This document shows positions 2,944 through 59,660 of a DNA stretch of 61,034 bases, piece by piece. A program made the position numbers and the translations under genes. The notes beneath the pieces were generated by a model, which made no database searches, was not told the origin of the DNA, and saw only the letters and a list, made by a program, of their open reading frames with translations. Numbering within the stretch: the stretch's first letter is position 1; each line of letters opens with the position of its first letter. The stretch covers positions 1 to 61,034 of the forward strand of contig JAUVIV010000002.1 of assembly GCA_030592575.1 (NCBI GenBank). Direction: 5' to 3'. Origin of the DNA: a bacterium (lineage in GTDB: Bacteria; Hydrothermota; UBA3073; JACQXS01).

Positions 2944-2997
2944 GGGTAAATAAGAGCCTCTGCTCTTATCAGGTTGAAGCAAAAGATTCAATCTACC
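2944..2997 (+). repeat. family-A double-hairpin REP-like element (GGGTA..two hairpins..CTACC)
   Basis: Homologous to 51501..51555 and, inverted, to 17670..17724; hairpins AAGAGC-n-GCTCTT and GGTTGAAGC..(decayed). Confidence 0.6.
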
Positions 2998-3013
2998 AAA
3001 TGATTATAATACA

Positions 3014-3940
3014 ATGATTCTAACTATAATACTTTTTATCTTAGGCGTATGGATGCTTGTTAAAGGAGCAAGTTGGCTAATAGATGGAGCATCAAGAGTT
3101 GCAGAAATATTTAAAATCTCTCCTCTTGTTATTGGGCTTTCAGTTGTAGCTATCGGAACATCACTTCCCGAATTCGGAGTTTCATTAACAGCAATACTCA
3201 GAGGAAGTGGAGATATTTCAGTTGGTAATATCATTGGAAGTAACATTTGCAATATTGGATTAGCACTTGCTATAGCTGCTATTATTTCAGTAGTTCTCGT
3301 ATCAAAATCTGCCCTAAAAAGAGACTTCCCCGTTATGCTGGGAGTAACGGTTATGTTATTGGTTTTCATAGCTGATCGCCGATTAGAACGATGGGAAGGT
3401 GTTTTACTTTTTATAAGTTTTATATGCTATTTTGTTTATCTATTCAAACGGAAAGAAGTCTTCACTCATGAAGGAAAAAACTATCCGAGTTGGATTAAAA
3501 AATATCCCTGGTTATCTATACTTTTCGGGATGATTGGAATAGCAATCGGGTCAAAACTTATGGTTGATTCAGGCGTTCAGATAGCAAGATTTATCGGAGT
3601 ATCAGAAGCAATCATCGGGCTTTCAATCCTTGCTATCGGAACTTCTTTGCCGGAACTTGTTACATCAGTCGTAGCTATGTTACATAAAGAATCAGAGATG
3701 TCACTCGGCAATATATTGGGAAGTAATATTTTAAACATTACTATGGTTTTAGGATGTGTATCAATAATCCGACCGATAGATGTGAGCGCAAGACTTTTCA
3801 GAATAGACGGCTGGATAATGTTAGGATATGCAATAGTTCTGTTTCCATTACTTCGCACCCAATATAAATTATCCAAAAAAGAAGGCAGATTCCTACTTAC
3901 CACCTACGTTATTTACCTTGTATATTTATATCTTAAGTAA
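3014..3940 (+). CDS. CaCA-family cation/Ca2+ exchanger (YrbG-like)
   Basis: Two alpha-repeats with GTSLPE plus GNI(I/L)GSNI motifs; about 10 hydrophobic segments. Confidence 0.85.
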   Translation: MILTIILFILGVWMLVKGASWLIDGASRVAEIFKISPLVIGLSVVAIGTSLPEFGVSLTAILRGSGDISVGNIIGSNICNIGLALAIAAIISVVLVSKSALKRDFPVMLGVTVMLLVFIADRRLERWEGVLLFISFICYFVYLFKRKEVFTHEGKNYPSWIKKYPWLSILFGMIGIAIGSKLMVDSGVQIARFIGVSEAIIGLSILAIGTSLPELVTSVVAMLHKESEMSLGNILGSNILNITMVLGCVSIIRPIDVSARLFRIDGWIMLGYAIVLFPLLRTQYKLSKKEGRFLLTTYVIYLVYLYLK

Positions 3941-4067
3941 TTCATCTTACAAACCTCTCCCCTATTTGTTAAATATTAGTTTAGTTCAACAGAAGTAACT
4001 TCTATAATAATTGAACTTACCTAATATCTTTCGTATTAATATCTCTTTATTCTGTGGTCAATTTTTC

Positions 4068-4096
4068 TTGACATAAAGCTTGACATAAAATATAAG
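4068..4096 (+). promoter_or_regulatory. sigma-70-like promoter candidate (TTGACA-17-TATAAG)
   Basis: TTGACA at 4068..4073, 17-nt spacer, TATAAG at 4091..4096; a second TTGACA at 4080; AAGGAGGTG RBS precedes the ATG at 4134. Confidence 0.4.
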
Positions 4097-4133
4097 TGCA
4101 AGTATTTTATAAAAAAGAAAAAGGAGGTGAAAG

Positions 4134-4511
4134 ATGAAGAAAAATTATATTTTTCTTTCATTGTTTATAGTAGGTTTATTTGTTTCAGGATGTGGTTCTT
4201 TAAGTACTTTTCAAAATGCCGAAGTTACACCTACAGGAAAAGCAGTAATTGGTGGTGGAGTTAATGGAATAGTTAATACAATAGGTGGTATATCAGATGA
4301 AGGCGAAAGTTCAATGCTTTTTCCTGTTCCTGAAATATATGGAAGATATGGATTGGCAAAAGATTGGGATGCCGGGATAAAATATACACTACCTCTTACT
4401 ATAAGTGGAGATATAAAATACCAACTCATAGATGGACCAGTTGCAGTTGCATTTAATCCAGGATGTAGTATGTTCATCATAGGAGGATATGGTATTATCC
4501 TCAAGTTTTAG
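4134..4511 (+). CDS. lipoprotein; probable N-terminal part of a split small outer-membrane protein
   Basis: Strong RBS; lipobox LFVSGC; Gly-rich beta-strand pattern; stops 11 nt before the next ORF, which is in another frame. Confidence 0.45.
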   Translation: MKKNYIFLSLFIVGLFVSGCGSLSTFQNAEVTPTGKAVIGGGVNGIVNTIGGISDEGESSMLFPVPEIYGRYGLAKDWDAGIKYTLPLTISGDIKYQLIDGPVAVAFNPGCSMFIIGGYGIILKF

Positions 4512-4522
4512 TAAGTACCAAA

Positions 4523-4756
4523 ATGCTGTATTTTGGGCTTAAGGGAGCATATATGACACTTATGGGAGATATAGGAAATGAAACTATAATTTTCAACCCC
4601 GGTTTTTTTGTAGGAGGATGTGTTGGTTTGAAACTAACTCTTGGCAGACTTTCAATTATGCCTGAATTTAATCTTCTCACTGGAATTAGCGGATATGCAA
4701 AAGATCTAGAATGCAGTTTATCTCAAGGAGGTATAGGATTCGCTGTAGAATTTTAA
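4523..4756 (+). CDS. probable C-terminal part of the same small OMP (ends ...GFAVEF)
   Basis: No RBS of its own; its frame is open back to 4469 and overlaps the end of the previous ORF; OMP-type C-terminal Phe. Confidence 0.35.
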   Translation: MLYFGLKGAYMTLMGDIGNETIIFNPGFFVGGCVGLKLTLGRLSIMPEFNLLTGISGYAKDLECSLSQGGIGFAVEF

Positions 4757-4802
4757 AAATGAAGATGCTTATCATAAACTATAATATTTAAAGAAACAAG
4801 AG

Positions 4803-4834
4803 TGTAGGGAACGGGCATTACTGTTGTTCCCTAT
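4803..4834. repeat. GTAGGGAAC...GTTCCCTAT hairpin (variant of the GTAGGGAC palindromes)
   Basis: 9-nt arms with 8/9 complementarity around a 13-nt loop; GC-rich island in AT-rich spacer; accounts for the spurious TTG start at 4824. Confidence 0.5.
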
Positions 4835-4844
4835 TAATTTGAAA

Positions 4845-6695: not shown

Positions 6696-7364
6696 ATGAA
6701 ATTTTTTATAGATACAGCAAATCTGGATGAAATTCGTAAAGCAATGGATTGGGGAGTTCTTGATGGCGTTACCACAAATCCAACTTTGCTTGGGAAAGAA
6801 GTAGAAAAAACTCATCGCAAACCCAATGATATTTTAAAAGATATATGTGAGCTTGTTCCGGGTTCTGTATCGGCTGAAGGTATTAGTCTTGATACAGATG
6901 GAATCGTGAAAGAAGGAGAAGAGCTTGCTAAAATTCATCCAAATATTTGTATAAAAGTTCCAATGACCCCTGAAGGAGTAAAAGCAATCAGAATACTTCG
7001 CAGCAAGGGAATTAAGGTAAATACAACTCTTGTTTTTTCCTGTAATCAAGCTCTCATTGCCGCAAAGGCAGGCACAAATTATATATCGCCTTTCATAGGC
7101 AGACTTGACGACATAGGACAAAATGGAATGGAACTTATAAGTGAAATTATTATTATGCTTGAAAATTATGATTTTGATACTGAAGTGCTTGTAGCTTCGG
7201 TTCGTCACCCATTGCATGTAGTTGAGGCAACTCAATTAGGTGCTGATATTTGCACAATTCCTTTCAAGGTACTCAATTTAATGTTCAAGCATCCGCTTAC
7301 TGATAAAGGAATAAAGAGTTTTCTTAAAGATTGGGAACGTGCAAAAGAATTTATGCCAAGATGA
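6696..7364 (+). CDS. tal: short-type transaldolase / fructose-6-phosphate aldolase
   Basis: [23 protein letters not shown]-terminus; Schiff-base lysine context ICIKVPMT; about 220 aa; AGGAGG RBS. Confidence 0.9.
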
Positions 7365-8668
7365 TAGAAAGATATACAACCCCTGAATTTGAAAAAATAT
7401 GGAGTGATTCATCTAAATATCAGCAGTGGTTAGAAGTGGAACTTGCGGTTCTTGATGCACGTGCTGAACTTGGAGAATTATCACCTGAAATTGCAAAAGA
7501 AATAAGAAGCAAGGCAAAATTTGACCCCGCCCGCATCAAAGAGATTGAAGCCATCACTCACCACGATTTAATAGCATTCCTTGAAAGTGTCGGTGAGTCA
7601 GTTGGTGAACTCTCCGGACAGATACATCTTGGGCTTACCTCCTACGACATAGTAGATACTGCACTTTCATTACTAATGAAAGAAGCAGGCGAAATCATCT
7701 TGAAAGAACTTCGGGAACTAAAAGAAGCTTTAAAACAAAAAGCAATTGACGAGAAAATGACAATTATGGCTGGAAGAACTCACGGTGTTCATGCTGAGCC
7801 TACTTCACTTGGATTAAAGTTCCTTATATGGTATGAGGAGATAAGGCGAAATGAAATCCGATGGTTAGATGCAATAGCTGCTATATCTTATGGCAAAATT
7901 TCAGGTGCCTGTGGCAATTATGCACATATCTCTCCTCAAGTAGAGGAACTTACTTGCAAAAAACTTGGGCTTCTGCCGGCTCCTGTATCAACTCAAGTAA
8001 TTCAACGAGACCGTCATTGCCAATATTTATTTACACTTGCTCTTATTGCGACTTCTTGTGAAAAGATTGCACAGGAAATAAGGCATTCACAGAGAACGGA
8101 GATTCAAGAACTTGAGGAGCCGTTTGCGAGCGGACAAAAAGGCTCATCAGCAATGCCACATAAAAAGAATCCAATAATTTGCGAACGAATTTGTGGACTT
8201 GCAAGAGTTGTGCGAGGTTATACGCAGACAGGATTTCAAAATATTCCATTATGGCAAGAACGAGACATTTCAAATTCCTCTCCGGAACGTGTGATTATAC
8301 CAGATTCTACATCCCTTACTCATTATATGCTGAGAAAGACAAAAGGAGTGATTCAGGGGTTAGGTATTTTACGAGAGAATATGAAGAAAAATATTGAAAT
8401 CACGAATGGACTTATTTATTCCGGTAGGGTTCTTATGGAACTAATGAAAAAAGGATTTGGAAGAAAAGAAGCATATAAGATTGTACAAGGTGCATCTTTT
8501 GAAGCAGATTCAAAGAATAAGCATCTTAAAGAGATTCTGCTTGAAAGGGCGGCTCATGAACCGCCCCTACCATTCTCTGCCGAAGAGATTGAGGACTTTT
8601 TCAACCCTGAGTATTATTTAAGAAATGTAGATTCAGTGTATAAAAGAGTGCTTGGTCACAAAAAATAG
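7361..8668 (+). CDS. purB: adenylosuccinate lyase
   Basis: Fumarate-lyase signature [11 protein letters not shown]; ATG at 7361 forms an ATGA overlap with the tal stop (preferred over TTG at 7331). Confidence 0.9.
8547..8570 (-). repeat. REP-like hairpin inside purB (GTAG-GGGCGG-n8-CCGCCC on the minus strand)
   Basis: GGGCGGCTCATGAACCGCCCCTAC: 6-bp GC stem plus a CTAC tail, a GC island in AT-rich coding DNA; encodes ..RAAHEPPLP.. Confidence 0.35.
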
Positions 8669-8763: not shown

Positions 8764-9318
8764 ATGATACTTTTAATTGGATTTCTTTTGATGACTGATA
8801 CTACTTGGGCAACTGGTAGTTTTTTTGACGAGTTCTCAATTAACATTAACATAGAGGAAAGAGAAAAAATAGTTAAGAAAAGATCAGCTTTATTAACTGG
8901 AACAATTAATGCAATACCAGGAATAGCTATAGTTGGCAACAGTTTAATCTATGGTAAAGGAAATTTGGCAGGAATTGGGTTAGGAATTACGACTATGCTA
9001 GTAGGAGCTAGTACAGGAACGATTGCTGGATATCGCAGTGCAAATTGGTTTATCAAGCATAAACCAAAAAATATTGGTATAGGTTTCCTTTTGGGCATTC
9101 CCATTGGCGCACTTGCAGGAGCTTCTTGTGGTGCAATCACAGGAGCAACATTATGTACCATTGGCTTCTATGGACTTGGTATGAATGAAATTTGTGTTAA
9201 TAGATTCCAAAGTGCCGGAGTTGGAGCACTTTTTGGAGTAATCATTGGAGCAGAGATAGGTGCAATAATTGGAGCAATAACAGGTGGTTGGATAGTCGAC
9301 TATTTAGAGGAAAAATGA
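8764..9318 (+). CDS. hypothetical glycine-zipper membrane protein
   Basis: Repeated GxxxG/A segments (IGAEIGAIIGAITGG); first ~20 codons nearly identical at DNA level to the 10287 gene; no obvious RBS. Confidence 0.4.
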   Translation: MILLIGFLLMTDTTWATGSFFDEFSININIEEREKIVKKRSALLTGTINAIPGIAIVGNSLIYGKGNLAGIGLGITTMLVGASTGTIAGYRSANWFIKHKPKNIGIGFLLGIPIGALAGASCGAITGATLCTIGFYGLGMNEICVNRFQSAGVGALFGVIIGAEIGAIIGAITGGWIVDYLEEK

Positions 9319-9378: not shown

Positions 9379-9435
9379 CTTCTACCGCACTTTAGTGCAG
9401 GGTAAAAAACCTCAGAGCTAAAGCATAGGTAGAAG
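9379..9435 (+). repeat. family-B REP-like element
   Basis: CTTCTACC-GCACTTTAGTGC-AGGGTA...GAGCTAAAGC..GGTAGAAG; copies at 9592, 10057, 10251 and 51574. Confidence 0.65.
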
Positions 9436-9441
9436 ATAGAA

Positions 9442-10074
9442 ATGAAACAAAAACCTTATTGGCCGAATAATACTATTTACTTTCTTACCTGTTCTACATT
9501 TCTTCACTATCCTTATTTTAGAGAAGATGAGCAAAAACAAATTGTCTTGAATCAAATTGAGAAAGTGCAAAACCTTTTAAAAGATAACCATCGGCTAAAG
9601 CCGTGTAGAAGTAGTCTTCTACCCCACTTTGACAAAGAGCTAATTTATAGTATAGCCATTAATCATTATTATTTAAAATTTTATCTTGAAAACGGTCTAT
9701 TGTTGGCTAAAATCAAACAAGTAATGCATGGAGGAACTACTTTTGAATACAAAAAGAGATATAAGATGCATTACAAAGATATGTGGCAAAGTTCCAAGAT
9801 TATAAGAATTATTTCAGAGGAAATGGATTGGAAAGTAACAGGATATATAATTGGCAATTTATTGAAACACAAGGAACTAAGCACTTTTGAGGAGTTAGCA
9901 GAGAATCCTTTTTCGAGTTACCAAAAAATAGTAACAGAATACGATGAAGAATTTGCTCGTGAATTGGTCTATAGTGTAATTAATGTAGATGAGAATGCAG
10001 ATGGAGTAATTGATGTCAAAGAATTAATAAAGAGTAGGCTAAAGCTTTTAAGACCCTCGACTAAAGCCGGGTAG
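9442..10074 (+). CDS. RAYT-like (HUH/Y1 transposase superfamily) protein, apparently decayed
   Basis: NTIYFLTCSTF.., IAINHYYLKF (HUH position reads H-Y-Y), GYIIGNLLKHKEL (Y1-like YIxxNxxK); flanked and invaded by family-B repeats; stop codon lies in a repeat. Confidence 0.4.
   Translation: MKQKPYWPNNTIYFLTCSTFLHYPYFREDEQKQIVLNQIEKVQNLLKDNHRLKPCRSSLLPHFDKELIYSIAINHYYLKFYLENGLLLAKIKQVMHGGTTFEYKKRYKMHYKDMWQSSKIIRIISEEMDWKVTGYIIGNLLKHKELSTFEELAENPFSSYQKIVTEYDEEFARELVYSVINVDENADGVIDVKELIKSRLKLLRPSTKAG
9592..9633 (+). repeat. family-B REP-like element inside the RAYT-like ORF
   Basis: CGGCTAAAGCCGTGTAGAAG..TTCTACCCCACTTTGAC; translated in frame as HRLKPCRSSLLPHFD. Confidence 0.55.
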
Positions 10075-10106
10075 AAATGGGATTCTACCGCACTTTAGTG
10101 CAGGGT
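10057..10106 (+). repeat. family-B REP-like element
   Basis: CTCGACTAAAGCCGGGTAGAA..TTCTACCGCACTTTAGTGCAGGGT; supplies the last codons and the TAG stop of ORF 9442..10074. Confidence 0.65.
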
Positions 10107-10250: not shown

Positions 10251-10272
10251 CTCGGCTAAAGCCGGGTAGAAC
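10251..10272 (+). repeat. family-B half element (CGGCTAAAGCCG-GGTAGAA)
   Basis: Same module as at 9592 and 10057; lies immediately upstream of the RBS of the 10287 gene. Confidence 0.55.
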
Positions 10273-10286: not shown

Positions 10287-11741
10287 ATGATACTTTTAAT
10301 TGGATTTCTTTTGATGGCGGATACTACCTACGCAACTGGGAATTTTGGTGGTAGGTTATCAATCAAACTTCCTTCATTGGGTGCTATGAATTTAGGATAT
10401 ACTAATCCGTCTCTTGCTAAAGGACTTGCCGGATTCATCTCAAATCCTGCGGCACTTTCCTATATTGAAGACAAGAACTTTTCAAGTACTGTAGGGTTTG
10501 GTTCAGAAGTTAATCTTAAACTAAACCATACATTTGATATGAAAGAACTTGGAAAGGTTAGCATTCCTCTTGATTTTGCCTTTGGTCAGCCGGTAAGCAT
10601 GAATACGATAGCTTTTGGTGCTAATCTTGGAGGTTGGATAATTGGACTTGGATTTATGGAGGAATTTGGAGTAAGACTAAATACTACTGGAGAAGTCAAA
10701 TTGTGTCATACACTTAATGATACGATTCATTATACTATAACAAATGCTGACATACCGGAAATTCCCGAAGAAGATACTATCCCGATTGCACTGAGTTTTA
10801 GAAGTCCTGTTGAGCTATCTCTTATAGGAAATGGAAACCTTGATTATTCAGAGAATAAAATTTTTTTAGGTATTGCTCGTCAATCATCAGGTTGGTTTAA
10901 AATGGGAGCCGGTATCAGATATAAACCGATTAAAGGAAAAGTTTTACTTGGTTCGGTAGCAAATGTTAACGCACCTTGTACATTAGAATGTCAAACAACT
11001 CAAGTAGGATGGACAATTAAAGGAATGGGAACTACGCATATTAATGAAGATGTGTTTTCTACATTATGGGAAGGGAATGTAACAGGAAATGAATTCGGGT
11101 TTGTTGGTGGAATAATATTGGATTTAGGAATATTAAAATTATCAGGCACATTAGAAGGAACATCAGCAACTACTTTAAAAACTGAAGGTGGAAGTAAATT
11201 AACTTGCATAAATGATATTCCATCAATAGATTCAATTTATTTTGATAGTGTAACAGTTGATACTGTTAATAATGAAATAAGTGGAGCAATAGGAGTAAAA
11301 CTTTCTGAATTCCCTGACACCACAGAAACGAATAACTGGGAAAATGAATCTTATGAATTAGAGGGAAAAATTGGAATAACTCTTGGAAGTGCAATTAAAC
11401 TTGGTCCCTTTACAGCCGGATTAGCTGTTGGAGTAAGTACTTTAGAGGAAATCTGGTTAAGTGGAGGATTTGAGTCTAGGTTATTGTTTCCTTTAAGAGC
11501 TAATTTTGAGCTTAGGAATAAATTTTATCATATTAAAGGAGAAAAGAAGATCCCAATGCCCTATATGGTAATGGGAATAGGAAGTTCTTTGCAGATTAAA
11601 AACTTGAATCTGGATTTTGGATTAAGGACAAATTCTTTCCATACATTGGCTTCCGTTGCCGAGACGGTAAAAGAAGAAGAACTACCAGGATTATTTGAAT
11701 TGTTTTCCCCAATGATAGGAATAAACCTCAAATTTGAATAA
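10287..11741 (+). CDS. hypothetical outer-membrane protein
   Basis: AGGAGG RBS; N-terminus MILLIGFLLMADTTYATG duplicated from/with the 8764 gene; beta-rich; ends ..GINLKFE. Confidence 0.5.
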   Translation: MILLIGFLLMADTTYATGNFGGRLSIKLPSLGAMNLGYTNPSLAKGLAGFISNPAALSYIEDKNFSSTVGFGSEVNLKLNHTFDMKELGKVSIPLDFAFGQPVSMNTIAFGANLGGWIIGLGFMEEFGVRLNTTGEVKLCHTLNDTIHYTITNADIPEIPEEDTIPIALSFRSPVELSLIGNGNLDYSENKIFLGIARQSSGWFKMGAGIRYKPIKGKVLLGSVANVNAPCTLECQTTQVGWTIKGMGTTHINEDVFSTLWEGNVTGNEFGFVGGIILDLGILKLSGTLEGTSATTLKTEGGSKLTCINDIPSIDSIYFDSVTVDTVNNEISGAIGVKLSEFPDTTETNNWENESYELEGKIGITLGSAIKLGPFTAGLAVGVSTLEEIWLSGGFESRLLFPLRANFELRNKFYHIKGEKKIPMPYMVMGIGSSLQIKNLNLDFGLRTNSFHTLASVAETVKEEELPGLFELFSPMIGINLKFE

Positions 11742-12570: not shown

Positions 12571-13680
12571 ATGAAAAAGATTTTAATAGTAACCGGTGAG
12601 GTTTCCGGAGACCTACACGGTGCACTTCTAATCAAAGAGCTCAAAAAACTCATTCCGAATTTAAAAGTATTTGGCATAGGAGGCGAAAAACTTAAAGAAG
12701 AAGGAGTAGAGCTTGTACACCATATAAATGATATAGCTGTAGTTGGTATTTTAGAAGTTATCCCAAAGTTTTTTCGTATAAAACAAGCTATGAATACTCT
12801 TTATCAAAAAATGCTCTCAGAACGACCGGATGTATGCTTATTGATTGATTATCCGGGATTTAACTTGAGGTTTGCAAAATTAGCTAAAAAACAAGGTGTC
12901 AAAGTGGTTTATTATATTCTACCTCAGATTTGGGCTTGGGGTAAATGGAGACTCAAGTCAATCCGCCAATTAATAGATAAAGGAATTTCAATTCTTCCCT
13001 TTGAGCGTGAATTTTATAATATAGGAGCAGTTAGCGAACCGCCCATGCAAATTGAGTTCATAGGACATCCACTGCTGGATATAATACAAAAATCAGAAGT
13101 CAGAAACCAAAAATCAGAAACGATAGCACTTCTGCCAGGGTCACGAAAAGATGAAATAAAACGCATCTTACCTATAATGCTTGAATGCGTAAAAGAGATG
13201 CCTGAGTTTGAGTTCGTTCTTCCGATAGCTCCGGGAATCGATAAATCTTGGATTAAAGAATTCGTAGGGGCAATTCGCGAATTGCCCTTAAATCGCATAA
13301 GAATAGTAGAAGGCAAAACTTATGAAATATTAAGAAACTCAAAGCTTGCACTTATCGCTTCCGGAACTGCCACTCTTGAAGCGTGCATACTTGAAGTTCC
13401 AATGATAATAATTTATAAACTTCAATTCCTTTCTTATGTTTTTGGGCGATTACTTGTTAAAACGCAATGGATTGGGCTTCCAAATATAATTGCCGGGAAA
13501 AAAATTGTGCCAGAATTCATTCAATCTAATGCAAAGCCCGAAAAAATTATAAAAGCTGCAAAACAAATATTGAAAACCAGAGAACAGTCAGTATCAGAAT
13601 TAAGAGAAGTAAAAAAGAAACTTGGTTCTACGGGAGCAGTTCACAGAGCAGCTGAAATTTTATATAAATTCATTTTTTGA
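12571..13680 (+). CDS. lpxB: lipid-A-disaccharide synthase
   Basis: N-terminus KILIVTGEVSGDLHGALLIKELK; ..LLPGSR.. and ..ASGTATLE.. motifs; ~369 aa. Confidence 0.85.
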   Translation: MKKILIVTGEVSGDLHGALLIKELKKLIPNLKVFGIGGEKLKEEGVELVHHINDIAVVGILEVIPKFFRIKQAMNTLYQKMLSERPDVCLLIDYPGFNLRFAKLAKKQGVKVVYYILPQIWAWGKWRLKSIRQLIDKGISILPFEREFYNIGAVSEPPMQIEFIGHPLLDIIQKSEVRNQKSETIALLPGSRKDEIKRILPIMLECVKEMPEFEFVLPIAPGIDKSWIKEFVGAIRELPLNRIRIVEGKTYEILRNSKLALIASGTATLEACILEVPMIIIYKLQFLSYVFGRLLVKTQWIGLPNIIAGKKIVPEFIQSNAKPEKIIKAAKQILKTREQSVSELREVKKKLGSTGAVHRAAEILYKFIF

Positions 13681-16093: not shown

Positions 16094-17575
16094 ATGAAAA
16101 GATGGGGATTTTTGATAGTGTTGGGAACTTGCAATTTGTATGGACAATGGGAAGCAGATAAAAGATTAACTGATTATCCCTATCCTAACTATGGTAGCTA
16201 CAATAATGCGTGGACAATAGTAGTGCAGGATACTATGGTGCATATCGTATGGGAACATAAAGAGATAACTAATGGTCCAGGTGAGCTTTATTATATAAGG
16301 TCGAGCAATTCAGGGAGTAGCTTTGAGCAGGATAAACCGCTAACTACAGAGGATTCTCATTGTCCTTCGGTAGCAGTTTCTGGTTCAATAGTTCATGTAG
16401 TTTGGGTAGACAAACGTGATGGTAACTGGGAGATATATTACAAGCGGTCAGTTAATAATGGTGAGACTTGGGGAATAGATAAGAAGTTACTTAATGCCCT
16501 TAACTCATGGTCTCCTTCGATAGCAGTTCGTGATTCAATAGTTCATGTAGTTTGGCAGGATTATCGTGATGACAGCTACCCGGAGATATATTACAAGCGG
16601 TCAGTTAATAATGGTGAGACATGGGAAGCTGATGAGAGACTAACCAATGACTCTGCTTCCTCATATAATCCTTCGGTAGCAGTTTCTGATTCAATAGTTC
16701 ATATTGTTTGGCAAGATTGGCGGGATAAGAACTGGAAAATATATTATAAACGGTCAATAGATGATGGAGAGACCTGGGGGATAGATGAGAGGATAAGTAG
16801 TAATGACCCTGCTTTCTCAAGGTATCCTTCGATAGCAGTTTGTGATTCAATAGTTCATGTGGTTTGGTATGATGAGCGGGATAGCAACAAGGAGATATAT
16901 TACAAGCGGTCAGTTAATAATGGGATACTTTGGGAAGATGATGAGAGGCTAACTAATGATACTGATAGTTCATCGTATCCTTCAATAGCAGTTTGTGATT
17001 CAGCAGTTCATGTAGTGTGGATGGATAATCGGGATGGCAACGAGGAGATATATTACAAGCGGTCAGTTGATAATGGGATACTTTGGGAAACCGACGAGAG
17101 ACTGACTAATGCTGCCTATTTGGCTGATCATGTTTCTGTAGCATGTTGGGATTGTTTTTATGATTATGATGTTCATATAGCATGGACAGATTATCGTAAT
17201 GGCTACCCGGAGATATATTACAAGCATCATAAATGTGAGGGTACAGATGTGAAGGAGAGAGATTCTTCGCCTTCGCCTCAGAATGACAAGTTAGAGATAT
17301 ATCCGAACCCATCTATCGGGAAAATCGTTATTCGTTATTTGTTAAGCGAAAATCGAAACAGTTATACAATTAACAATTTACGATTAACTATTCATGATAT
17401 ATCTGGCAGATTAGTAAAAACACTTTATTCCGGAACGCAGGAAAAAGGTGAACATACAATTAACATAAATAATGTAGGGACACGCCATAGCATGTCTCTA
17501 CCCAAAGGTATTTACTTTGTGAAAATGGAGACAAGTAATTTCAAGATAAAGAAAAAACTGACGATACTAAGATAG
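16094..17575 (+). CDS. BNR/Asp-box repeat beta-propeller protein with T9SS C-terminal sorting domain
   Basis: About 7 repeats of SIVHVVWxDxRDxNxEIYYKRSxxxGxTW (Asp-box SxDxGxTW variants); C-terminus ..GIYFVKMETSNFKIKKKLTILR. Confidence 0.7.
   Translation: MKRWGFLIVLGTCNLYGQWEADKRLTDYPYPNYGSYNNAWTIVVQDTMVHIVWEHKEITNGPGELYYIRSSNSGSSFEQDKPLTTEDSHCPSVAVSGSIVHVVWVDKRDGNWEIYYKRSVNNGETWGIDKKLLNALNSWSPSIAVRDSIVHVVWQDYRDDSYPEIYYKRSVNNGETWEADERLTNDSASSYNPSVAVSDSIVHIVWQDWRDKNWKIYYKRSIDDGETWGIDERISSNDPAFSRYPSIAVCDSIVHVVWYDERDSNKEIYYKRSVNNGILWEDDERLTNDTDSSSYPSIAVCDSAVHVVWMDNRDGNEEIYYKRSVDNGILWETDERLTNAAYLADHVSVACWDCFYDYDVHIAWTDYRNGYPEIYYKHHKCEGTDVKERDSSPSPQNDKLEIYPNPSIGKIVIRYLLSENRNSYTINNLRLTIHDISGRLVKTLYSGTQEKGEHTININNVGTRHSMSLPKGIYFVKMETSNFKIKKKLTILR
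17474..17501. repeat. decayed 28-bp GTAGGGACA..TCTCTAC palindrome inside a T9SS C-terminal domain
   Basis: GTAGGGACACGCCATAGCATGTCTCTAC; same length and termini as the perfect palindromes at 42656 and 43582; encodes VGTRHSMSLP. Confidence 0.5.
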
Positions 17576-17669: not shown

Positions 17670-17724
17670 GGGTAGGTTGAAGCCCTCGCTTCAACCTGAT
17701 GAGAGCAAAAGCTCTCATCTACCC
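17670..17724 (-). repeat. family-A double-hairpin REP-like element (inverted copy)
   Basis: GGGTAG-GTTGAAGC-cctc-GCTTCAAC..GATGAGAGC-aaaa-GCTCTCATC-TACCC; reverse complement of 51501..51555. Confidence 0.7.
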
Positions 17725-19839: not shown

Positions 19840-19861
19840 AGTAAAATTAGTCTGTTGATAA

Positions 19862-27850: not shown

Positions 27851-27900
27851 GAAGTGCAAAATCAGTGATTTTACATGCAACAACATCATTGTTGTACTCC
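27851..27900 (-). repeat. family-E double-hairpin element (inverted copy)
   Basis: Reverse complement GGAGTACAACAATGATGTTGTTGCATGTAAAATCACTGATTTTGCACTTC matches 59169..59219. Confidence 0.65.
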
Positions 27901-43893: not shown

Positions 43894-45939
43894 CTAATTA
43901 CTCCAAAAACTCAGTTTTTGTTTTACAGCCCATTTTTCAAAGGCATACGCAATTTCTGCTAAATCATGTTTTTGAATAAGATGATTATGCTCATCTAGTT
44001 TTCTTTCTCCGGTCTTTTCGTCAATCTCATAAATCTCTTGTCCGGAATTATCTTTCCCTGAATTTTCTGAAACTGCCATAAAAATAGGATAATCTTCAAC
44101 TTTCGGGTTTATTTCATCATCCCATTTTTGAACAAACAGAACAGATGTTTTTGTTCCCGTATGTGGTTTAAAAGTATTTCCATCAAGACCAATAACTGCA
44201 AGCAGTCTTGCTCTTTCCATAATAAAATCTCTGATTCTCTCATCAGAAGTATTATTAAATCTTCCTTGAGGTAACACAATTGCCATTCTTCCACCATCTT
44301 TTAGAAAATCTAAATTTCTTTCAATAAACAAAACATCTCTTGAAATTTTATTTATTTTCTTCCCTTTGTTAAAAGCGACATCATAGTTTGAAATAAGACG
44401 ACTATCTTTTATATCTCCTGCAAAAGGAGGATTTGCCATTACCATATCAAATTTAAATTCTTTCGGATTTTTTGGGTCTTTTGCTAAATCAAGAAGTCTT
44501 TGATAGCCATCATTATATGTTCTCATCCATTCTCTATCTTTTTGTTTTTCCGCCCATCTTGTATAGTCTAAACTATTAAGATGTAAAACATTCGTCCTCC
44601 CATCTCCTGAAATCATATTCAGTGTTCTGGCAACTCTTACAGATTTTTCATCAAAATCAATCCCAAAAACTTTATTTACATAGTCTTTTTGTTCAGAGGA
44701 AAGTTTCTGATTAGAAAAATTAGCAAATTGAGCTTTACCCTGATTTACAAGTTTTTTCCAAACATTAAAAAGAGTATGAACCGTAAAACCACAACTACCG
44801 CAAGCAGTATCAATCATATATTCATTTGGTTGCGGATTTATCATATAAACAGCCATATCAATTACATTTCTCGGAGTAAAATATTGCCCTTTTGCTCCTT
44901 TGGCTGATTTGTTTACAAGATATTCAAAAGCCTCATCAATTACCTGAAGATTAGAATTAAAAAGTTTTACATTTTGCAAAAAACCAACACAAATTTGCAA
45001 ATGATTTTCATCTGTAATCTTAAGAGGTTCTCCTTTTTCAAAAATACCAGGCCACTTATCTTTGGCTTTATTAAATAATTTATTAATTACTTCTTTGGTA
45101 TGATGTGCATCTCCACGACTTCTAAATTCTAATTTTCTAAAACCATCATTGCCAATATTAAGCAACAACAATTCTTTTTCTGTCAATCTGGGATTATCTT
45201 TCTTTGCTTCTTTTAAAAGAACTTCTATTGTAACTCTGTCCTCTGCGCTTTCCATTTCATCAAAAAGTTTTGTAAAAATGAGCTTGAAAACTTCTTCAAA
45301 AACATCAACACCGGCATTAGACAATACTTCGTCTTCCATTTCTTCAATCAAAGATTTTAGAGACTTTCTTTCTTCCGAAAGTCTATCTTTTTGCATTAAC
45401 TCAAAATATGTAAATATCTCATTTTTTACATCATCAATTGTTTCTGTTGCTTTTGGTATATCTGAAAGTGGCTCAAAGTAATTTGGGTCAAGTCTTTCAT
45501 AACAATCAATATCAACACCATTTGTCCAAACTGCAAGCGGGGCACCTGTTGCATTTGTATAACTTTTTAATTGATCTTTACCATCTTTTGCTTTATGTTT
45601 CTTCATTTCAAGAACACAGTAAACACTTGTTTTATCTATTTTATTAAGAATGACAATATCAGCAAGTTTCTTTTCTCTTCCAAAATTAACGGTAAATTCT
45701 ACTTGTATCAAATCTAAAGAATAATCATATTCATTGATGAGTTTATCAATCATCAATTGTCTTACAATCTCTTCCGGTTTAACTTGAATATCCTTTTTTC
45801 TTTTCAAGCATTTAAGAAAATACTTGCCATTTTTCTCAAAGATATTTTTTTCAATTCTATCAATACTTTCAGATGAAAAAATTATCAGGTCGTATTTGCC
45901 AGTAGATTTTATTAATTGTAATATTTGTATATTATTCAT
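43894..45939 (-). CDS. hsdM: N6-adenine DNA methyltransferase (HsdM-like) fused to an N-terminal PD-(D/E)xK-like (HsdR_N-type) domain
   Basis: Gamma-class motifs ..DTACGSCGF.. (motif I) and ..MANPPFAG.. (motif IV); N-terminus ..LADIVILNK..VYCVLEMKKHK..QLKSY..AVWTNG.. resembles a PD-(D/E)xK core. Confidence 0.8.
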   Translation of the reverse strand: MNNIQILQLIKSTGKYDLIIFSSESIDRIEKNIFEKNGKYFLKCLKRKKDIQVKPEEIVRQLMIDKLINEYDYSLDLIQVEFTVNFGREKKLADIVILNKIDKTSVYCVLEMKKHKAKDGKDQLKSYTNATGAPLAVWTNGVDIDCYERLDPNYFEPLSDIPKATETIDDVKNEIFTYFELMQKDRLSEERKSLKSLIEEMEDEVLSNAGVDVFEEVFKLIFTKLFDEMESAEDRVTIEVLLKEAKKDNPRLTEKELLLLNIGNDGFRKLEFRSRGDAHHTKEVINKLFNKAKDKWPGIFEKGEPLKITDENHLQICVGFLQNVKLFNSNLQVIDEAFEYLVNKSAKGAKGQYFTPRNVIDMAVYMINPQPNEYMIDTACGSCGFTVHTLFNVWKKLVNQGKAQFANFSNQKLSSEQKDYVNKVFGIDFDEKSVRVARTLNMISGDGRTNVLHLNSLDYTRWAEKQKDREWMRTYNDGYQRLLDLAKDPKNPKEFKFDMVMANPPFAGDIKDSRLISNYDVAFNKGKKINKISRDVLFIERNLDFLKDGGRMAIVLPQGRFNNTSDERIRDFIMERARLLAVIGLDGNTFKPHTGTKTSVLFVQKWDDEINPKVEDYPIFMAVSENSGKDNSGQEIYEIDEKTGERKLDEHNHLIQKHDLAEIAYAFEKWAVKQKLSFWSN

Positions 45940-50114: not shown

Positions 50115-51476
50115 TTAATCGGAACTTTTGAATGACTTTAATTTATCCACAAAGTAATCAAGTTCTTCACGAGTGCGTTTTTCTGTTACTGCTATTAAAA
50201 GTTCATTGGTTTGTTCTTTGTAAAACTTACTTATTGGAACTCCTGCAAAAATATGTTCTTTAATTAAACTTTGAACAATTTGAGATGCCTCTATCGGTGT
50301 ATGAATAAGAAACTCATTAAAAAATGGGGTCTGATAAGACAAGTCAAATCCCGGTATTTCGGAAATTCTTTTAGCAAGATAATGTGCCTTCTCATAACAA
50401 AGTTCACTAACTTCACGAATTCCTTGAGCTCCCATTATGGTAAGATATACGCAAGTAGCAATGCTACACAGTCCTTCATTCGTGCATATATTTGATGTTG
50501 CACGTTCTCTTCTTATATGTTGCTCACGTGTTTGAAGTGTCATAACAAAACTTCTTTTACCTTCTATGTCCTTTGTTTGTCCAATTATTCTTCCCGGCAT
50601 CCTACGAATCCATTCTCGACGTGTAGCAAAAATTCCAAGTCCGGGTCCTCCAAAAGATTGAGGTATTCCAAGAGACTGCCCTTCAGCTACAACAATATCT
50701 GCACCCAAGTGCTGGTTAGCACCCCAGTCACCCGGTGGGGCAAGCATTCCAAGAGAAGCTGGAAGTGGAATTCCTATATAAAGTGCATTATTCTTATGGA
50801 TTAAAGCCCCAAGTTCTTCAACTTGCTCAAGCACTCCAAAGAAATTAGGATGCTGAACTACAACACAAGACACATCGCCTTTTTGCAATATATCCTTAAG
50901 AGCATTTATATCCGTACACCCATTTTGCAAGGGCACGATGCATAGTGCTTCTACTCCAAGATAAGTCTCAAGACATTGTATATACGACGGATTAACTCCC
51001 TCGGATATTAAAATTTTTCCCTTTTTTATGAAGCGTGCCATATAGCAAGCCTCGGCAAGTGCCGATGCTCCATCATACATTGATGCATTTGCAACTTCCA
51101 TTCCCGTAAGCTCGCAAATCATTGACTGGTATTCATAAATTGTCTGAAGTGTTCCTTGAGACGCCTCAGCTTGATAAGGAGTGTAGGCAGTGTAAAACTC
51201 CGGTCTTCTTATCACATAATCAACTGCCTGAGGAATATAATGGTCATACGAACCAGCCCCAAGAAATGAAATAGCTTTATTCGTACTTATATTACTATCT
51301 GATAATCCCTGCATCAGCTTTTTGATTTCAAGTTCTGATAAAGCCGACGGCAACTCAAGAGATGTTTTAAGTCTTAAATGTTCCGGAATTGGAGAAAGAA
51401 GAGCATCAAAATTTTTGACTCCAATTCGCTGGAGCATCTCGTTCCGTTCTTCAACTGTATTAGGTATAAATCTCAT
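50115..51476 (-). CDS. gcvPA: glycine dehydrogenase (decarboxylating) subunit 1
   Basis: ..FLGAGSYDHYIP..; ..YTPYQAEASQGTLQ..; ~453 aa, typical of a split P-protein alpha subunit. Confidence 0.9.
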   Translation of the reverse strand: MRFIPNTVEERNEMLQRIGVKNFDALLSPIPEHLRLKTSLELPSALSELEIKKLMQGLSDSNISTNKAISFLGAGSYDHYIPQAVDYVIRRPEFYTAYTPYQAEASQGTLQTIYEYQSMICELTGMEVANASMYDGASALAEACYMARFIKKGKILISEGVNPSYIQCLETYLGVEALCIVPLQNGCTDINALKDILQKGDVSCVVVQHPNFFGVLEQVEELGALIHKNNALYIGIPLPASLGMLAPPGDWGANQHLGADIVVAEGQSLGIPQSFGGPGLGIFATRREWIRRMPGRIIGQTKDIEGKRSFVMTLQTREQHIRRERATSNICTNEGLCSIATCVYLTIMGAQGIREVSELCYEKAHYLAKRISEIPGFDLSYQTPFFNEFLIHTPIEASQIVQSLIKEHIFAGVPISKFYKEQTNELLIAVTEKRTREELDYFVDKLKSFKSSD

Positions 51477-51500: not shown

Positions 51501-51555
51501 GGGTAGATGAAAGCCTCTGCTCTCATCTGGTTGAAGCGAGGGCTTCAACCTACCC
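51501..51555 (+). repeat. family-A double-hairpin REP-like element
   Basis: GGGTAGATGAAAGC-ctct-GCTCTCATC-TGGTTGAAGC-gag-GGCTTCAACCTACCC. Confidence 0.7.
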
Positions 51556-51573: not shown

Positions 51574-51628
51574 CTTCTACCGCACTTTAGTGCAGGGTAG
51601 AAAACCCTTAGCTAAAGCTGGGTAGAAG
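51574..51628 (+). repeat. family-B REP-like element
   Basis: CTTCTACC-GCACTTTAGTGC-AGGGTAGAAAACCCTTAGCTAAAGCTGGGTAGAAG. Confidence 0.7.
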
Positions 51629-56340: not shown

Positions 56341-57429
56341 ATGGCAAAAACATTCGCTTGTCAATTTGATGATACGTCAAAAAATTTTTCTAAAGAGATA
56401 AGAGGAATTCTTGTTCAAACAACTCAAATCCTTAAAAATAATCATTTCAAAAATCCCTCCAAAGAAGCAATTATACTCGTAGCTTGTGCATTGAAAATAG
56501 ACAAAATATCTCTCTATCTTCATTACAACAAAATTTTATCAGATTTAGAGCAAGCTTCTATATCCAAACTCCTCGCAAGAAGACTTGAGCACGAACCACT
56601 GGAATATTTAACAGGACAGGTAAATTTTATGGGAATTGATTTTATGATTGAACCTCCGATTCTTATTCCAAGACCAGAGACTGAAGTTTTAGTTGAAACT
56701 CTTGTGAAATTAGCAAAAAGTAGAAACGATTCGCAAACCGCTCCTACCATAATATTTGATATAGGAACAGGTTCCGGAATAATCGGAATAACAAGTTTAA
56801 AGTTTTTACCCAACGCAAGAGTTTACGCTTCAGATATAATCGACCTCCACCTTGCCAAAAGAAACGCAATTAAACTTTCCACCTGTCATTCCTTTACTTC
56901 CGCTCAGGACAAGTCTGAGCCCACCTGTCATTCTGAACCCTTCGGCTGTCATTCTGAACGAAGTGAAGAATCTCAATTTTTGCCTCAGGATAAACTCCGT
57001 GAAGAATCTCGCGGTTGTCAGAGTAAGCCCCGTAAAGAGTCTAAACTTAAAATATCTGAAAGAATAAGTTTTTTAAGAAGCGATTTACTGCAATCATTTA
57101 AAAGAAAAGCAGATTTCATTGTATCAAATCCTCCTTATATTTCGAGTTCTGAAATACCCTCACTTCAGCCGGAAATAAAGTTATTTGAATCACATACCGC
57201 ATTAGATGGTGGAGAAGATGGACTATTCTTTATTAGAGAACTAATAAGAACTTCCGGAAATAACCTTAAGAAAAGCGGAATGCTCTTGTTAGAGATTTCC
57301 CCGGAGCAAACTGATACTATAGGAAAAGAAGCTCTAAAGTATTTTGAATCTGTAGAGTTTATAAAAGATTTTTTTGGAAGAACAAGGGTCTTCCTTGCTA
57401 AATATCCAAAAACAGGAACATACTTTTAA
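56341..57429 (+). CDS. prmC: release-factor glutamine N5-methyltransferase PrmC/HemK carrying a 57-codon repeat-derived insertion
   Basis: SAM motif IFDIGTGSGIIG; catalytic FIVSNPPYI; follows prfA as usual; the segment between the two motifs is repeat DNA. Confidence 0.8.
   Translation: MAKTFACQFDDTSKNFSKEIRGILVQTTQILKNNHFKNPSKEAIILVACALKIDKISLYLHYNKILSDLEQASISKLLARRLEHEPLEYLTGQVNFMGIDFMIEPPILIPRPETEVLVETLVKLAKSRNDSQTAPTIIFDIGTGSGIIGITSLKFLPNARVYASDIIDLHLAKRNAIKLSTCHSFTSAQDKSEPTCHSEPFGCHSERSEESQFLPQDKLREESRGCQSKPRKESKLKISERISFLRSDLLQSFKRKADFIVSNPPYISSSEIPSLQPEIKLFESHTALDGGEDGLFFIRELIRTSGNNLKKSGMLLLEISPEQTDTIGKEALKYFESVEFIKDFFGRTRVFLAKYPKTGTYF
56878..57041 (-). mobile_element. 164-bp mosaic repeat element inserted in frame in prmC, flanked by the 7-bp direct repeat TAAACTT
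   Basis: Colinear inverted homologue of 19937..20116 (with one fewer 21-bp unit); TAAACTT at 56871..56877 and 57042..57048; 164+7=171 nt (57 codons), no stop codons. Confidence 0.7.
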
Positions 57430-57566: not shown

Positions 57567-57630
57567 TGTAGAGGCGAACTCACGTGTTCGCCCAAATCAT
57601 CAAGGCAGACACACAGGTCTGCCCCCTACA
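57567..57630 (+). repeat. family-C double-hairpin REP-like element
   Basis: TGTAGAGGCGAAC-tcacgt-GTTCGCCC..GGCAGAC-acacag-GTCTGCCCCCTACA; near-identical copy at 59244..59306. Confidence 0.75.
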
Positions 57631-57683
57631 TCTTTTTATCCCTTTAACCACAATTATTATTCAAACCAAGCCAAGGAGACACT

Positions 57684-59152
57684 ATGAAAAGAATATTTAG
57701 TTTTATCTGGATAATTACAGGAACACAATTTATTGTGTCCACACTCGCAATTGCACAGACACCTAATACTTTGTGGACAAAAACTTACGGAGGAGCTTCT
57801 TCTGATAAGGGTTGCTCTGTTCAAGAATGTATAAATGGAGGTTTTATAATCACAGGAAGGACAAGGTCTTTTGGTGCTGGCGATTATGATGTCTATCTTA
57901 TAAGAATAGATGCAAACAGTGATACTCTGTGGACTAAAACTTATGGCGGAAATGGTTGTGATGAGGGTTATTATATTCAAGAATGTACAGATGAGGGCTT
58001 TATAATTACAGGAGCAACAACGTCTTTTGGTGCTGGCTCCTACGATGTCTATCTTATAAGGACAGATTCAAATGGTGATACACTATGGACTAAAACTTAT
58101 GGAGGAACTACTGATGATTGGGGCTGTTCTGTTCAAGAATGTACAGATGAGGGCTTTATAATTACAGGAGCAACAACGTCTTTTGGTGCTGGCTTTTCTG
58201 ATGTCTATCTTATAAGAACAAACGCAGATGGTGATACACTATGGACTAAAACTTATGGAGGAACTACTGATGATTGGAGTAATTCTATAGATAAATGTAC
58301 AGAAGGAGGATTTGTAATTACAGGAACAACAAAGTCTTTTGGTACTGGCTCTTCTGATGTCTATCTTATAAGAACAAACGCAGATGGTGATACACTATGG
58401 ACTAGGACTTATGGTGGAACTAACAATGATGAGGGATGGTCTGTTCAGGAGTGTGCAGGAGGTGGTTTTATAATCACAGGAATGACAAGGTCTTTTGGTG
58501 CTGGCTCCTATGATGTCTATCTTATAAGAACAAACACAGATGGTGATACTTTGTGGACAAGAACTTATGGTGGAACTTGTTGTGAGTATGGCAATTCTGT
58601 AGATAAATGTACAGAAGGAGGTTTTATAATTACAGGAATGACAACTTCTTTTGATGATGGTTATGAAAATGTCTATCTTGTAAGGACAAACTCAGATGGT
58701 GATACACTATGGACACAAATTTACAGTGGAATTGGTTGTGCTTGGGGATGCTCTGTTCAGGAGTGTGCAGGTGGTGGCTTTATAATCACAGGAATGACAA
58801 CGGCTGGCAATAGTGATGTCTATCTTATAAGGATTTCCGAGACAGGAGTGGAAGAAAGAGATTGCTTCACTGACGCTCACAATGACAGGTTGGAAGTATA
58901 TCCGAATCCGTGTAGCAAAAAAACCGTTATTCCTTAAACGAAAATCGTAACGATTTACGATTAACAATTCATGATATATCAGGTAGAATGATTAAAAGTC
59001 TTTATTCCGGGACTCAAGAAAAGGGTGAGCATACAATTCTCCTAAATAATGTAGTGACATGCCATGGCATGTCACTATCTGTAGGCATTTATTTCATCAG
59101 ATTTGAAACAGATGATTTCAAGATAACAAAGAAATTTACAATAATTCGTTAA
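57684..59152 (+). pseudogene. eight-bladed repeat (beta-propeller-like) secreted protein whose T9SS C-terminal domain is out of frame at an A7 tract
   Basis: ORF 57684..58937 stops 12 nt after A7 (58917..58923); the shifted frame is open from 58916 and encodes the rest of a T9SS domain to 59152; one extra A restores NRYSLNENRNDLRLTIHD.., matching the paralogue at 17290..17575. Confidence 0.7.
59051..59078. repeat. 28-bp near-perfect palindrome GTAGTGACATGCCATGGCATGTCACTAT inside the T9SS C-terminal domain
   Basis: 22-bp perfect core; same position in the domain as 17474..17501; encodes VVTCHGMSLS. Confidence 0.6.
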
Positions 59153-59168
59153 TCGTGCTTGGTACTAT

Positions 59169-59219
59169 GGAGTGCGACAACGATGTTGTTGCATTGCAAA
59201 ATCACCGATTTTGCACTCC
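59169..59219 (+). repeat. family-E double-hairpin element
   Basis: GGAGTGC-GACAAC-gat-GTTGTTGC-A-TTGCAAAATC-acc-GATTTTGCA-CTCC; inverted copy at 27851..27900. Confidence 0.65.
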
Positions 59220-59243
59220 CAAAAAAAACACTCCGAAAATAAA

Positions 59244-59306
59244 TGTAGGGGCGAACCCACGTGTTCGCCCAAATCATCAAGGCAGACACACAGGTCTGCC
59301 TCTACA
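59244..59306 (+). repeat. family-C double-hairpin REP-like element
   Basis: TGTAGGGGCGAAC-ccacgt-GTTCGCCC..GGCAGAC-acacag-GTCTGCCTCTACA. Confidence 0.75.
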
Positions 59307-59315
59307 TCAACGATA

Positions 59316-59368
59316 GTAGGAACACGATTCATCGTGTCCGATTCGGATTTGATAAATCAAATCCCTAC
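59316..59368 (+). repeat. GTAGG..CCCTAC double-hairpin element
   Basis: ACACGAT-tc-ATCGTGT and GGATTTGAT-aa-ATCAAATCC hairpins between GTAGG and CCCTAC. Confidence 0.55.
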
Positions 59369-59603
59369 AAGACCTCTTACAAACATATAAAAAATTTGGG
59401 AAAATTTCTAATTCTTTATGGCAAAACTCCTGTCATGCTAAATAAAATAAAGCATCTGTGAGATTCTTCGCTAACGCTCAGAATAACAACTTAATATGTA
59501 GTGCTTTGAACTTGTGTTCAAGCCATAAGCAAAAGCAAACTTATGCACTTAAAAAACCATCGCCATATCATTGTAGAAATTTCAAATGAATAAAACACAA
59601 ATG

Positions 59604-59660
59604 GGTAGAGTAGGGGCAATTGCCCCTATCTAACCCCCACGCAGAAGCAAGCTTCTGCAC
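59604..59660 (+). repeat. double-hairpin element (TAGGGGCAATTGCCCCTA; GCAGAAGC-aa-GCTTCTGC)
   Basis: 18-bp perfect palindrome plus a second 8-bp-stem hairpin, preceded by GGTAGAG. Confidence 0.55.

Follow-up and report, generated by a model that had tools for sequence, protein, structure and literature searches.

A REP/REPIN-type repeat population and two RAYT-like genes on a contig of the Hydrothermota

Short hairpins headed by GTAG or closed by CTAC are scattered along contig JAUVIV010000002.1 (assembly GCA_030592575.1), which derives from an uncultivated, AT-rich lineage of the Hydrothermota. Some of them lie between genes and others are read in frame within genes, and the same contig carries two open reading frames (ORFs) that resemble REP-associated tyrosine transposases (RAYTs, or TnpAREP), REP standing for repetitive extragenic palindrome. 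What are these hairpins, which enzymes do they belong to, and how should the copies inside genes be understood? The window, that is, the complete contig of 61,034 bases (34% G+C) on which the element counts given below rest, very probably holds a dense population of REPs and of REP doublets forming hairpins (REPINs), plus two single-copy RAYT genes encoding HUH/Y1 single-stranded DNA nucleases. This interpretation had been put forward in an earlier sequence-only reading of the contig and is upheld by the best NCBIfam scores, by the Escherichia coli TnpAREP structure (PDB 4er8) as the top structural match, by the lack of tnpB and of insertion sequence (IS) ends in the window, and by the cognate repeats found in relatives.

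Approximately 25 elements were recognized in the 61-kb window. All GTAG…CTAC segments of 18-90 nt were folded and compared with 40 dinucleotide shuffles: 7 real segments reached the threshold of -0.40 kcal/mol per nt vs 0 in each of the 40 shuffles, and the strongest real fold was at -0.75 vs -0.38 kcal/mol per nt for the best shuffle. Within the window, the hairpins are therefore over-represented, and every copy that the sequence-only reading had listed was found in its place. Further copies were detected at 13265-13290 (in lpxB), 59316-59368 and ~59605-59665, along with hairpins of a different, TGTC-tagged type at 17258-17288, 19860-20160, 51690-51793 and 59431-59490. The elements fall into five families, A to E. 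Families A to D all have a short palindrome with GTAG/CTAC feet; family E lacks these feet, and the earlier observation that almost all elements start or end with GTAG…CTAC does not extend to it. No Rfam family matched in the window at the gathering threshold. In their GTAG foot and 5-13 bp stems these repeats resemble the GTAG REP superfamily (Di Nocera 2013, PMC3733652) and the REPIN doublets (PMC3733652; Bertels & Rainey 2011, PMC3116915), the latter also in the head-to-head pairing of two different hairpins seen in families A and C, whereas family E departs from the superfamily in lacking GTAG. For GTAG REPs, multiple families in one genome, head-to-head dimers, clustering and, occasionally, in-frame copies within genes are already on record (PMC3733652), and neither the multiplicity of families nor the intragenic copies can be regarded as the anomalies they had been taken for.

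The first enzyme, RAYT-1 (43365..43892, minus strand, 175 aa), is identified by NCBIfam, profile comparison, an AlphaFold2 (AF2) model and its motifs. It displays a HuH motif (MPNHFHG), WQRSFYDH and a Y motif (KYIIDNP); H80 and H82 of the former and Y156 and N160 of the latter are invariant in the family alignment (A1), in which the consensus Y motif is YIxNNPLKW. Its best NCBIfam match is REP_Tyr_transpos (61 bits, E 1.1e-16), and one homologue (P0007) scores 68 bits with the RAYT model vs 16 bits with the IS200 model. More than 4000 homologues were retrieved, named 'transposase' or 'REP element-mobilizing transposase RayT' by their sources, with relatives including isolates of Pontibacter (Bacteroidetes). 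The family profile matches E. coli TnpAREP (4er8), which is also the top Foldseek PDB match of the AF2 model (4er8_A, E 8.6e-7; predicted local distance difference test score, pLDDT, 86), low pLDDT being confined to residues 91-110. The earlier description of this gene as RAYT-like is thereby upheld. The E. coli enzyme, which acts on REPs and bacterial interspersed mosaic elements (BIMEs), is the best structural match of both window proteins, shares the HuH and Tyr catalytic set with them, and reads a hairpin plus a GTAG guide; conversely, identity is only 16-18%, and the E. coli protein belongs to subclass 2.2 (DHLH, WE, YIHYNP) and has no REP in its own gene.

Among the published TnpAY1 subclasses, subclass 2.4 is defined by NH[IFV]H, WQ and YIxNNP, a variable insert between β3 and αC, 'double-foot' REPs, and in-frame REPs within tnpAREP itself (Quentin 2018, PMC6006769). 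All of these features are present in RAYT-1: NHFH, WQ and YIIDNP, a β3-αC insert made of an in-frame REP, and a double-foot REP of the form 5' GT[AG]G … C[TC]AC 3'. RAYT-1 is accordingly a predicted subclass 2.4 enzyme, and a REP within the RAYT gene, which had been singled out as anomalous, is a defining trait of that subclass. The equivalent RAYT Group 4 is spread over 17 classes (Bertels 2017, PMC5581495), a patchy presence over many phyla that is mirrored here. The relatives found in this study differ from those of the earlier survey in coming chiefly from uncultivated Patescibacteria, Omnitrophota, Cloacimonadota and Ignavibacteria, which were scarcely sampled in 2018.

The repeat associated with RAYT-1 is family D, a double-foot REP (GTAGGGACAGGTCGCGACCTGTCCCTAC) situated in frame inside the gene, between the HuH motif and helix αC, where it is read CRDRSRPVPT (43582..43609). 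An identical copy, in the same reading frame, occurs in the neighbouring hsdS gene between two target-recognition domains (TRDs; 42656..42683), both being perfect palindromes of 28 nt. A REP-coded peptide is found at the HuH-αC linker in 101 of the 104 RAYT-1 homologues. The linker varies in length within the family, and its readings, which include RDRSRPVPT, VGTGRDLSL and VGNGRDRSL, stem from the same DNA in two frames (VGTGRDLSL type in 39 homologues, RDRSRPVPT type in 30), the third frame containing a TAG stop. Of 44 loci (over 10 phyla) inspected at the DNA level, the majority contain the palindrome, and DNA from 80 genomes (>10 phyla) contains covarying variants such as GGGAACGG…CCGTTCCC, GGGACAACCCTAGGGTTGTCCC and GGGAACAGGCATGCCTGTTCCC. 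In the 32 loci of RAYT-1 relatives that have copies outside the gene, these are concentrated immediately ahead of the start codon and immediately behind the stop codon, which is the layout of a REPtron. The core of the in-gene copy differs from the nearest copy of the same locus by a median of 0.5 of 20 nt, vs a mean of 5.6 nt (of 20) from copies of other loci, and the exact 28-mer of the window occurs 17 times across relatives' loci, within or beside the RAYT gene. Locus comparison thus identifies family D as the predicted cognate REP of RAYT-1.

The two intact family D copies share asymmetric flanks (42655-42693 vs 43581-43619), C…A on the plus strand, and have a similar AT-rich 9-mer on one side (ATAATCATC and TTTATTATC), which may reflect a target-site preference or chance. 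Could the mobile unit be a 30-nt segment of the form TGTAGG…CCTACG, with GATNATNAN as candidate AT-rich 5' flank?

The second enzyme, RAYT-2 (9442..10074, plus strand), represents another Y1/HuH family. The window protein has no Pfam match; of its approximately 200 homologues, some match PF01797 and some are named RayT by their sources. The family, found mainly in Patescibacteria, possesses NHYH, MWQSSK and GYIIGNLLKH in the order known from TnpAREP, with NHYH in 90 of 110 members; Y135 and N139 are invariant in the family alignment, and the P of Y---NP is replaced by L. A homologue (P0125) scores 47.5 bits with the NCBIfam RAYT model over almost its entire length. The equivalog cut-off of that model (NF047646, 80 bits) is missed by this homologue, by RAYT-1 and by the window RAYT-2 (21 bits), as expected for subclasses distant from the model seed, but the RAYT model is still the best-scoring one. 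The structural model of RAYT-2 (pLDDT 82) retrieved 4er8_A as top Foldseek match (E 2.8e-5), which, together with the score of P0125, bears out the earlier description of this gene as RAYT-like. Profile-profile comparison of the RAYT-1 and RAYT-2 families gave only 7% probability, and a PDB sequence search with the RAYT-2 profile returned nothing significant. In view of these two results, the tie of RAYT-2 to TnpAREP is based on structure prediction, NCBIfam and motif order. The motif set fits none of the 12 published TnpAY1 subclasses (PMC6006769), and the family is therefore apparently unclassified but clearly RAYT-like. The window protein itself reads NHYY in place of NHYH and carries Cys at a nearly invariant Gly (residue 17), possibly the marks of an inactivated copy or of a sequencing error.

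Family B surrounds and invades RAYT-2, all copies being on the plus strand. A composite (CTACC-GCAC-TTTA-GTGC-AGGGTA plus a GCTAAAGC-GGTAGAA unit) lies upstream of the gene (9379..9435), in the same layout as in three homologous loci (L081, L084, L085); a second composite (NHRLKPCRSSLLPHF) is in frame inside the gene, ahead of the HuH strand (9592..9633); a third forms the 3' end of the gene and extends past it (10057..10106), so that the protein terminates in PSTKAG and the stop codon is the TAG of GTAG; and a single unit (CTCGGCTAAAGCCGGGTAGAA) follows downstream (10251..10271). In L081, L084 and L085, family B units likewise border the RAYT-2 homologue, their stems covarying (GCAC/GTGC, GGAC/GTCC and GAGC/GCTC), and the gene ends inside a unit with PSAKAG followed by a TAG which is that of the GTAG foot. 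About one sixth of the RAYT-2 homologues end within a family B unit in this manner. In L085, tandem arrays of an 89-nt composite unit stand on both sides of the gene (3620-3990 and 4560-5030, with at least 4 and at least 6 copies, respectively). In alignment A2, no protein other than the window one and its three nearest relatives has the internal copy at 9592, and that of P0123 is partial. These shared layouts designate family B as the predicted cognate REP of RAYT-2. Its very short stems (3-4 bp plus the foot helix) and its overlap with the RAYT-2 stop codon set it apart from the GTAG REP superfamily (PMC3733652). RAYT-2 is bordered by two ORFs (8764..9318 and 10287..11741) whose 5' ends are 82% identical (8759-8843 and 10282-10366) and encode a signal-peptide-like MILLIGFLLM, indicating that this REPtron sits between tandem paralogues.

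Among relatives belonging to many phyla, the variant that neighbours a given RAYT gene is the one also present within that gene or at its end. Judging from the precedents of E. coli TnpAREP and IS200/IS605, a RAYT would bind the hairpin on single-stranded DNA, read the GTAG foot, and perform Tyr-mediated cleavage and rejoining beside this foot, a reaction that would copy or maintain the elements. The in-frame copies in genes would then be those that landed in loops able to tolerate them and survived there: an insert divisible by three (30 nt in hsdS) would keep the frame, and only the two TAG-free frames could persist.

The hsdS gene (41962..43362, minus strand; Pfam Methylase_S) has its corrected start at 43362, separated by 2 nt from the stop codon of RAYT-1, given that 110 of 120 homologues begin at residue 15 of the long ORF; an hsdM-type N6 DNA methylase gene (43894..45939, minus strand; Pfam N6_Mtase, HSDR_N_2) has its stop codon 1 nt before the RAYT-1 start. 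None of the 119 aligned HsdS homologues has residues in the columns of the 10-residue insert CRDRSRPVPT. By homologue comparison, insertion is proven in hsdS and in prmC (see below), and the in-frame copies that had been proposed in hsdS and in both RAYT genes, namely in the RAYT-1 linker and as the internal and 3'-end units of RAYT-2, are all confirmed. Two further copies had been placed in frame in sorting domains of the type IX secretion system (T9SS). One of them, a decayed family D copy at 17474..17501, does lie within such a domain (ORF 16094..17575), where it is read in frame as VGTRHSMSL, but the other (59051..59078, also decayed) lies in the paralogous remnant of a T9SS tail, gene 57684..58937 being frameshifted ahead of its sorting domain. 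Since their surroundings are paralogous (78% identity over 196 nt), these two copies are probably one old insertion. In purB (ORF 7331..8668), which had been named as a possible case, insertion is unproven: the hairpin with CTAC at 8547..8571 (plus strand) is in frame and read RAAHEPPLP, yet the protein exceeds PurB homologues of known structure by only about 2 residues there. The same applies to the GTAG hairpin in lpxB (13265..13290, plus strand; VGAIRELPL), with about 2 extra residues vs solved homologues.

We also considered whether the identical family D copies might delimit a mobile segment of 926 bp, comprising the RAYT C-terminus and HsdS TRD1, or promote shuffling of hsdS; no evidence was found for either, the hsdS homologues being collinear except for the 10-residue insert. 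A RAYT gene between hsdM and hsdS recurs once clearly, in a Latescibacterota locus (L077, 7234-12793) with the order hsdM (54% identical), PIN gene, RAYT, ORF, hsdS; among 80 RAYT loci, methylase neighbours comprise this clear case and 3 weaker ones (N6-methylase). With one clear recurrence, the arrangement in two phyla is a lead rather than a finding. As to the truncated T9SS gene, its DUF5122 beta-propeller coding region (57684..) stops at 58937 and the sorting domain goes on in another frame (57684-59143); it shows a 22-nt deficit compared with its paralogue (17243-17566), reflecting either a pseudogene or an assembly error.

Family A consists of spacerless doublets (GGGTAG, two hairpins, CTACCC), with a compensatory change between copies (ATAAGAGC/GCTCTTAT vs ATGAGAGC/GCTCTCAT): a decayed intergenic one at 2944..2997, an inverted one upstream of a Ser/Thr kinase gene (17670..17724), and one upstream of the gcvP start codon at 51476 (51501..51555; ORF 50115..51476), which adjoins an intergenic family B composite (51574..51628, plus strand). 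The copies at 17670 and 51501 lie outside genes, ahead of likely start codons, and so does a decayed variant resembling family D (GGGAACGG type) that closely precedes yidD (4803..4833). Family C is a head-to-head doublet in which a GTAG-GGGCGAAC hairpin (GTAG-GGCGAAC) and a GGGCAGAC hairpin-CTAC (GGCAGAC) are separated by a spacer; two intergenic copies (57567..57630 and 59244..59306) are 97% identical, and a remnant lies near 52824. A looser metagenome scan for the second hairpin yielded more than 120 contigs, many with the same two-hairpin architecture (the first hairpin varying between GGGCGAAC, GGGCGCAC, GGGCGACC and a second GGGCAGAC), which thus recurs in dozens of metagenome contigs. 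In one RAYT gene (L201), a C-type hairpin is read VGADLRVCP in the linker, and in another (L093) a hairpin close to that of the window lpxB is read VGAIHELPLQ, showing that elsewhere C-type REPs are paired with subclass 2.4-like enzymes of their own. Family E is an intergenic double hairpin present at 27851..27900 (inverted) and 59169..59219. A further GTAG doublet (two hairpins, CTAC; 59316..59368) has a second hairpin that recurs in L134. None of families A, C and E was encountered in the 80 RAYT-1 loci, and the cognate RAYTs of family C and of A and E are absent from the contig. The coexistence of several families with only two Y1 genes had been seen as puzzling; it ceases to be so for a single 61-kb contig on which B and D are matched to genes and for which C-type hairpins are found in metagenome RAYT genes.

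How the embedded REP of RAYT-1 is kept deserves separate consideration. Being a perfect palindrome identical to the local REPs, unlike the decayed T9SS copies, it has been homogenised, re-inserted or selected. Selection would be at work if the in-gene REP were a maintained cis element, serving either as a built-in master copy or as an autoregulatory binding site on its own gene or mRNA, a possibility that we regard as tentative and rather unlikely. It is favoured by the retention of the element at one position in 101 of 104 homologues from many phyla, by the perfect or near-perfect palindrome that persists while the T9SS copies decay, by the use of two frames, so that the peptide is not the conserved thing, by the identity to neighbouring REPs held in each genome, and by the 17 occurrences of the exact 28-mer inside or beside RAYT genes. 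On the other hand, linker copy number and partial copies vary widely, 3 homologues have no in-gene REP, and the segment was modelled as a loop at the periphery that hardly affects the protein (PMC6006769); moreover, the same pattern would arise if copies repeatedly re-inserted at a hot spot or if flanking copies converted the in-gene one. With a similarly low expectation, the embedded REP of subclass 2.4 as a whole could be a selected nucleic-acid element, gene and repeat forming one self-contained unit able to found a new REP population after horizontal transfer.

It is considerably less probable that the hairpins as such are host regulatory elements (terminators, mRNA stabilisers or protein-binding sites) under selection, with an incidental association to Y1 genes. 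Most copies are intergenic and near gene ends, and such roles are known for E. coli REPs (PMC3733652); nevertheless, this explanation leaves unaccounted for the copies in coding loops of unrelated proteins, the locus-specific match of in-gene and flanking variants in dozens of genomes, and the tandem arrays around RAYT-2 homologues. No Rfam family matches the hairpins, and regulatory roles would fit secondary co-option rather than the origin of the repeats. That the Y1 genes are ordinary IS200/IS605 insertion sequences, with the hairpins as subterminal ends and solo remnants, is scarcely credible, for despite a fold in common with the IS608/ISDra2 TnpA proteins and a weak Pfam Y1_Tnp match, each gene is present once in the window, lacks tnpB and is not bounded by distinct IS ends on the left and right, the Y motif reads Y---N(P/L) rather than Y---Q (definitions in PMC6006769), the NCBIfam IS200 model reaches 16-19 bits (cut-off 55) vs 47-68 bits for the RAYT model, and identical hairpins are dispersed far from the genes.

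Several points weigh against the REP/REPIN-plus-RAYT interpretation that we prefer. The census covers the 61-kb contig alone; mobility of the elements is inferred solely from presence or absence in homologues. Unlike the published subclass 2.4 REPtrons, RAYT-1 is located within a Type I restriction-modification operon and has no immediately flanking REPs, its only associated copies being the internal one and one 680 nt downstream. On account of its NHYY, unique among 120 homologues, the window RAYT-2 may lack activity. No enzyme gene for families A, C or E is present in the window, and E is also devoid of GTAG; scans with exact patterns gave 0 matches both for family A in viral contigs and for the complete family C composite in metagenomes. 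Compensatory stem changes, a check raised by the sequence-only reading, were observed in family D, at the family B loci and between the family A copies, but the family D values (96.8% of cells pairing across 39 distinct stem variants, with double changes in 9 of 12 pairs) are inflated, as that set had been picked as palindromic.

A second class of repeats shares the window with the REPs. The prmC gene carries a 171-nt mosaic of hairpin units in frame (56872..57042, plus strand), amounting to 57 extra residues; residues 177/178 of Thermotoga maritima HemK are contiguous across it. The larger mosaic element proposed for prmC is thus a true in-frame insert, but its hairpins are tagged with TGTC, not GTAG. 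It has an intergenic twin at 19937-20123, within a mosaic of TGTC-tagged units that includes 21-nt tandem units (19860..20160). Units of the form TGTC-AT-stem-loop-stem-AT-CTC also occur at 51690-51793 and 59431-59490, as well as in frame in both T9SS proteins (ERDSSPSPQNDK; 17258-17288 and 58857-58887). In the published CGTC/TGTC-tagged REPs, among them the Rickettsia palindromic elements RPE-4 and RPE-6, stems of 8-9 bp enclose loops of 4-5 nt and the tail is CCA; these REPs have no associated transposase (Di Nocera 2013, PMC3733652). The window units resemble them in the TGTC start, AT-initial stems, in-frame insertion into genes and lack of a linked transposase, and differ in their 5-7 bp stems, 7-13 nt loops and CTC tail. 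A TGTC form with covarying stems and the CCA tail is found at many unrelated loci, and copies in L028, L055 and L057 fully fit the published features; a scan of viral contigs for the TGTC unit gave 1 match. Sequence features place the prmC insert, together with several intergenic mosaics, in a putative separate TGTC-tagged class without known enzyme.

Repeats of both classes are stacked in two places. Between 58948 and 59680, at least 6 repeat types stand back to back over ~730 nt in a BIME-like cluster (the family D remnant, E, C, the GTAG doublet at 59316-59368, a TGTC unit and the hairpin pair at 59605-59665), and a 420-nt mosaic upstream of gcvP (51477-51899) combines family A, family B and two TGTC-type hairpins.

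The core phenomenon, i.e. intragenic REPs, multiple families and REPs within RAYT genes, is already published. To this the contig adds a clean, well-populated REP/RAYT example in which two enzyme-repeat pairs occur together in an AT-rich lineage that is uncultivated, and extends the published subclass 2.4 trait of a REP in the transposase gene to Patescibacteria, Omnitrophota, Cloacimonadota and others. Minor new points are a RAYT situated between hsdM and hsdS, and the RAYT-2 family itself, a second RAYT-like family that is apparently unclassified and whose cognate REP supplies the stop codon. For annotation, these repeats explain recurring odd peptides in predicted proteins (VGTGRDLSL, RDRSRPVPT, VGADLCVCP and CHSERSEES). 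As an aside, such units may settle between hsdM and hsdS in Type I restriction-modification operons, and a REP inserted in the HsdS linker could alter target spacing. The in-gene hairpin, being retained, palindromic and identical to its neighbours, makes the question of passenger or functional element directly testable. If gene and repeat do form a self-contained unit, this would explain the presence of a near-identical 28-bp palindrome in more than 10 phyla.

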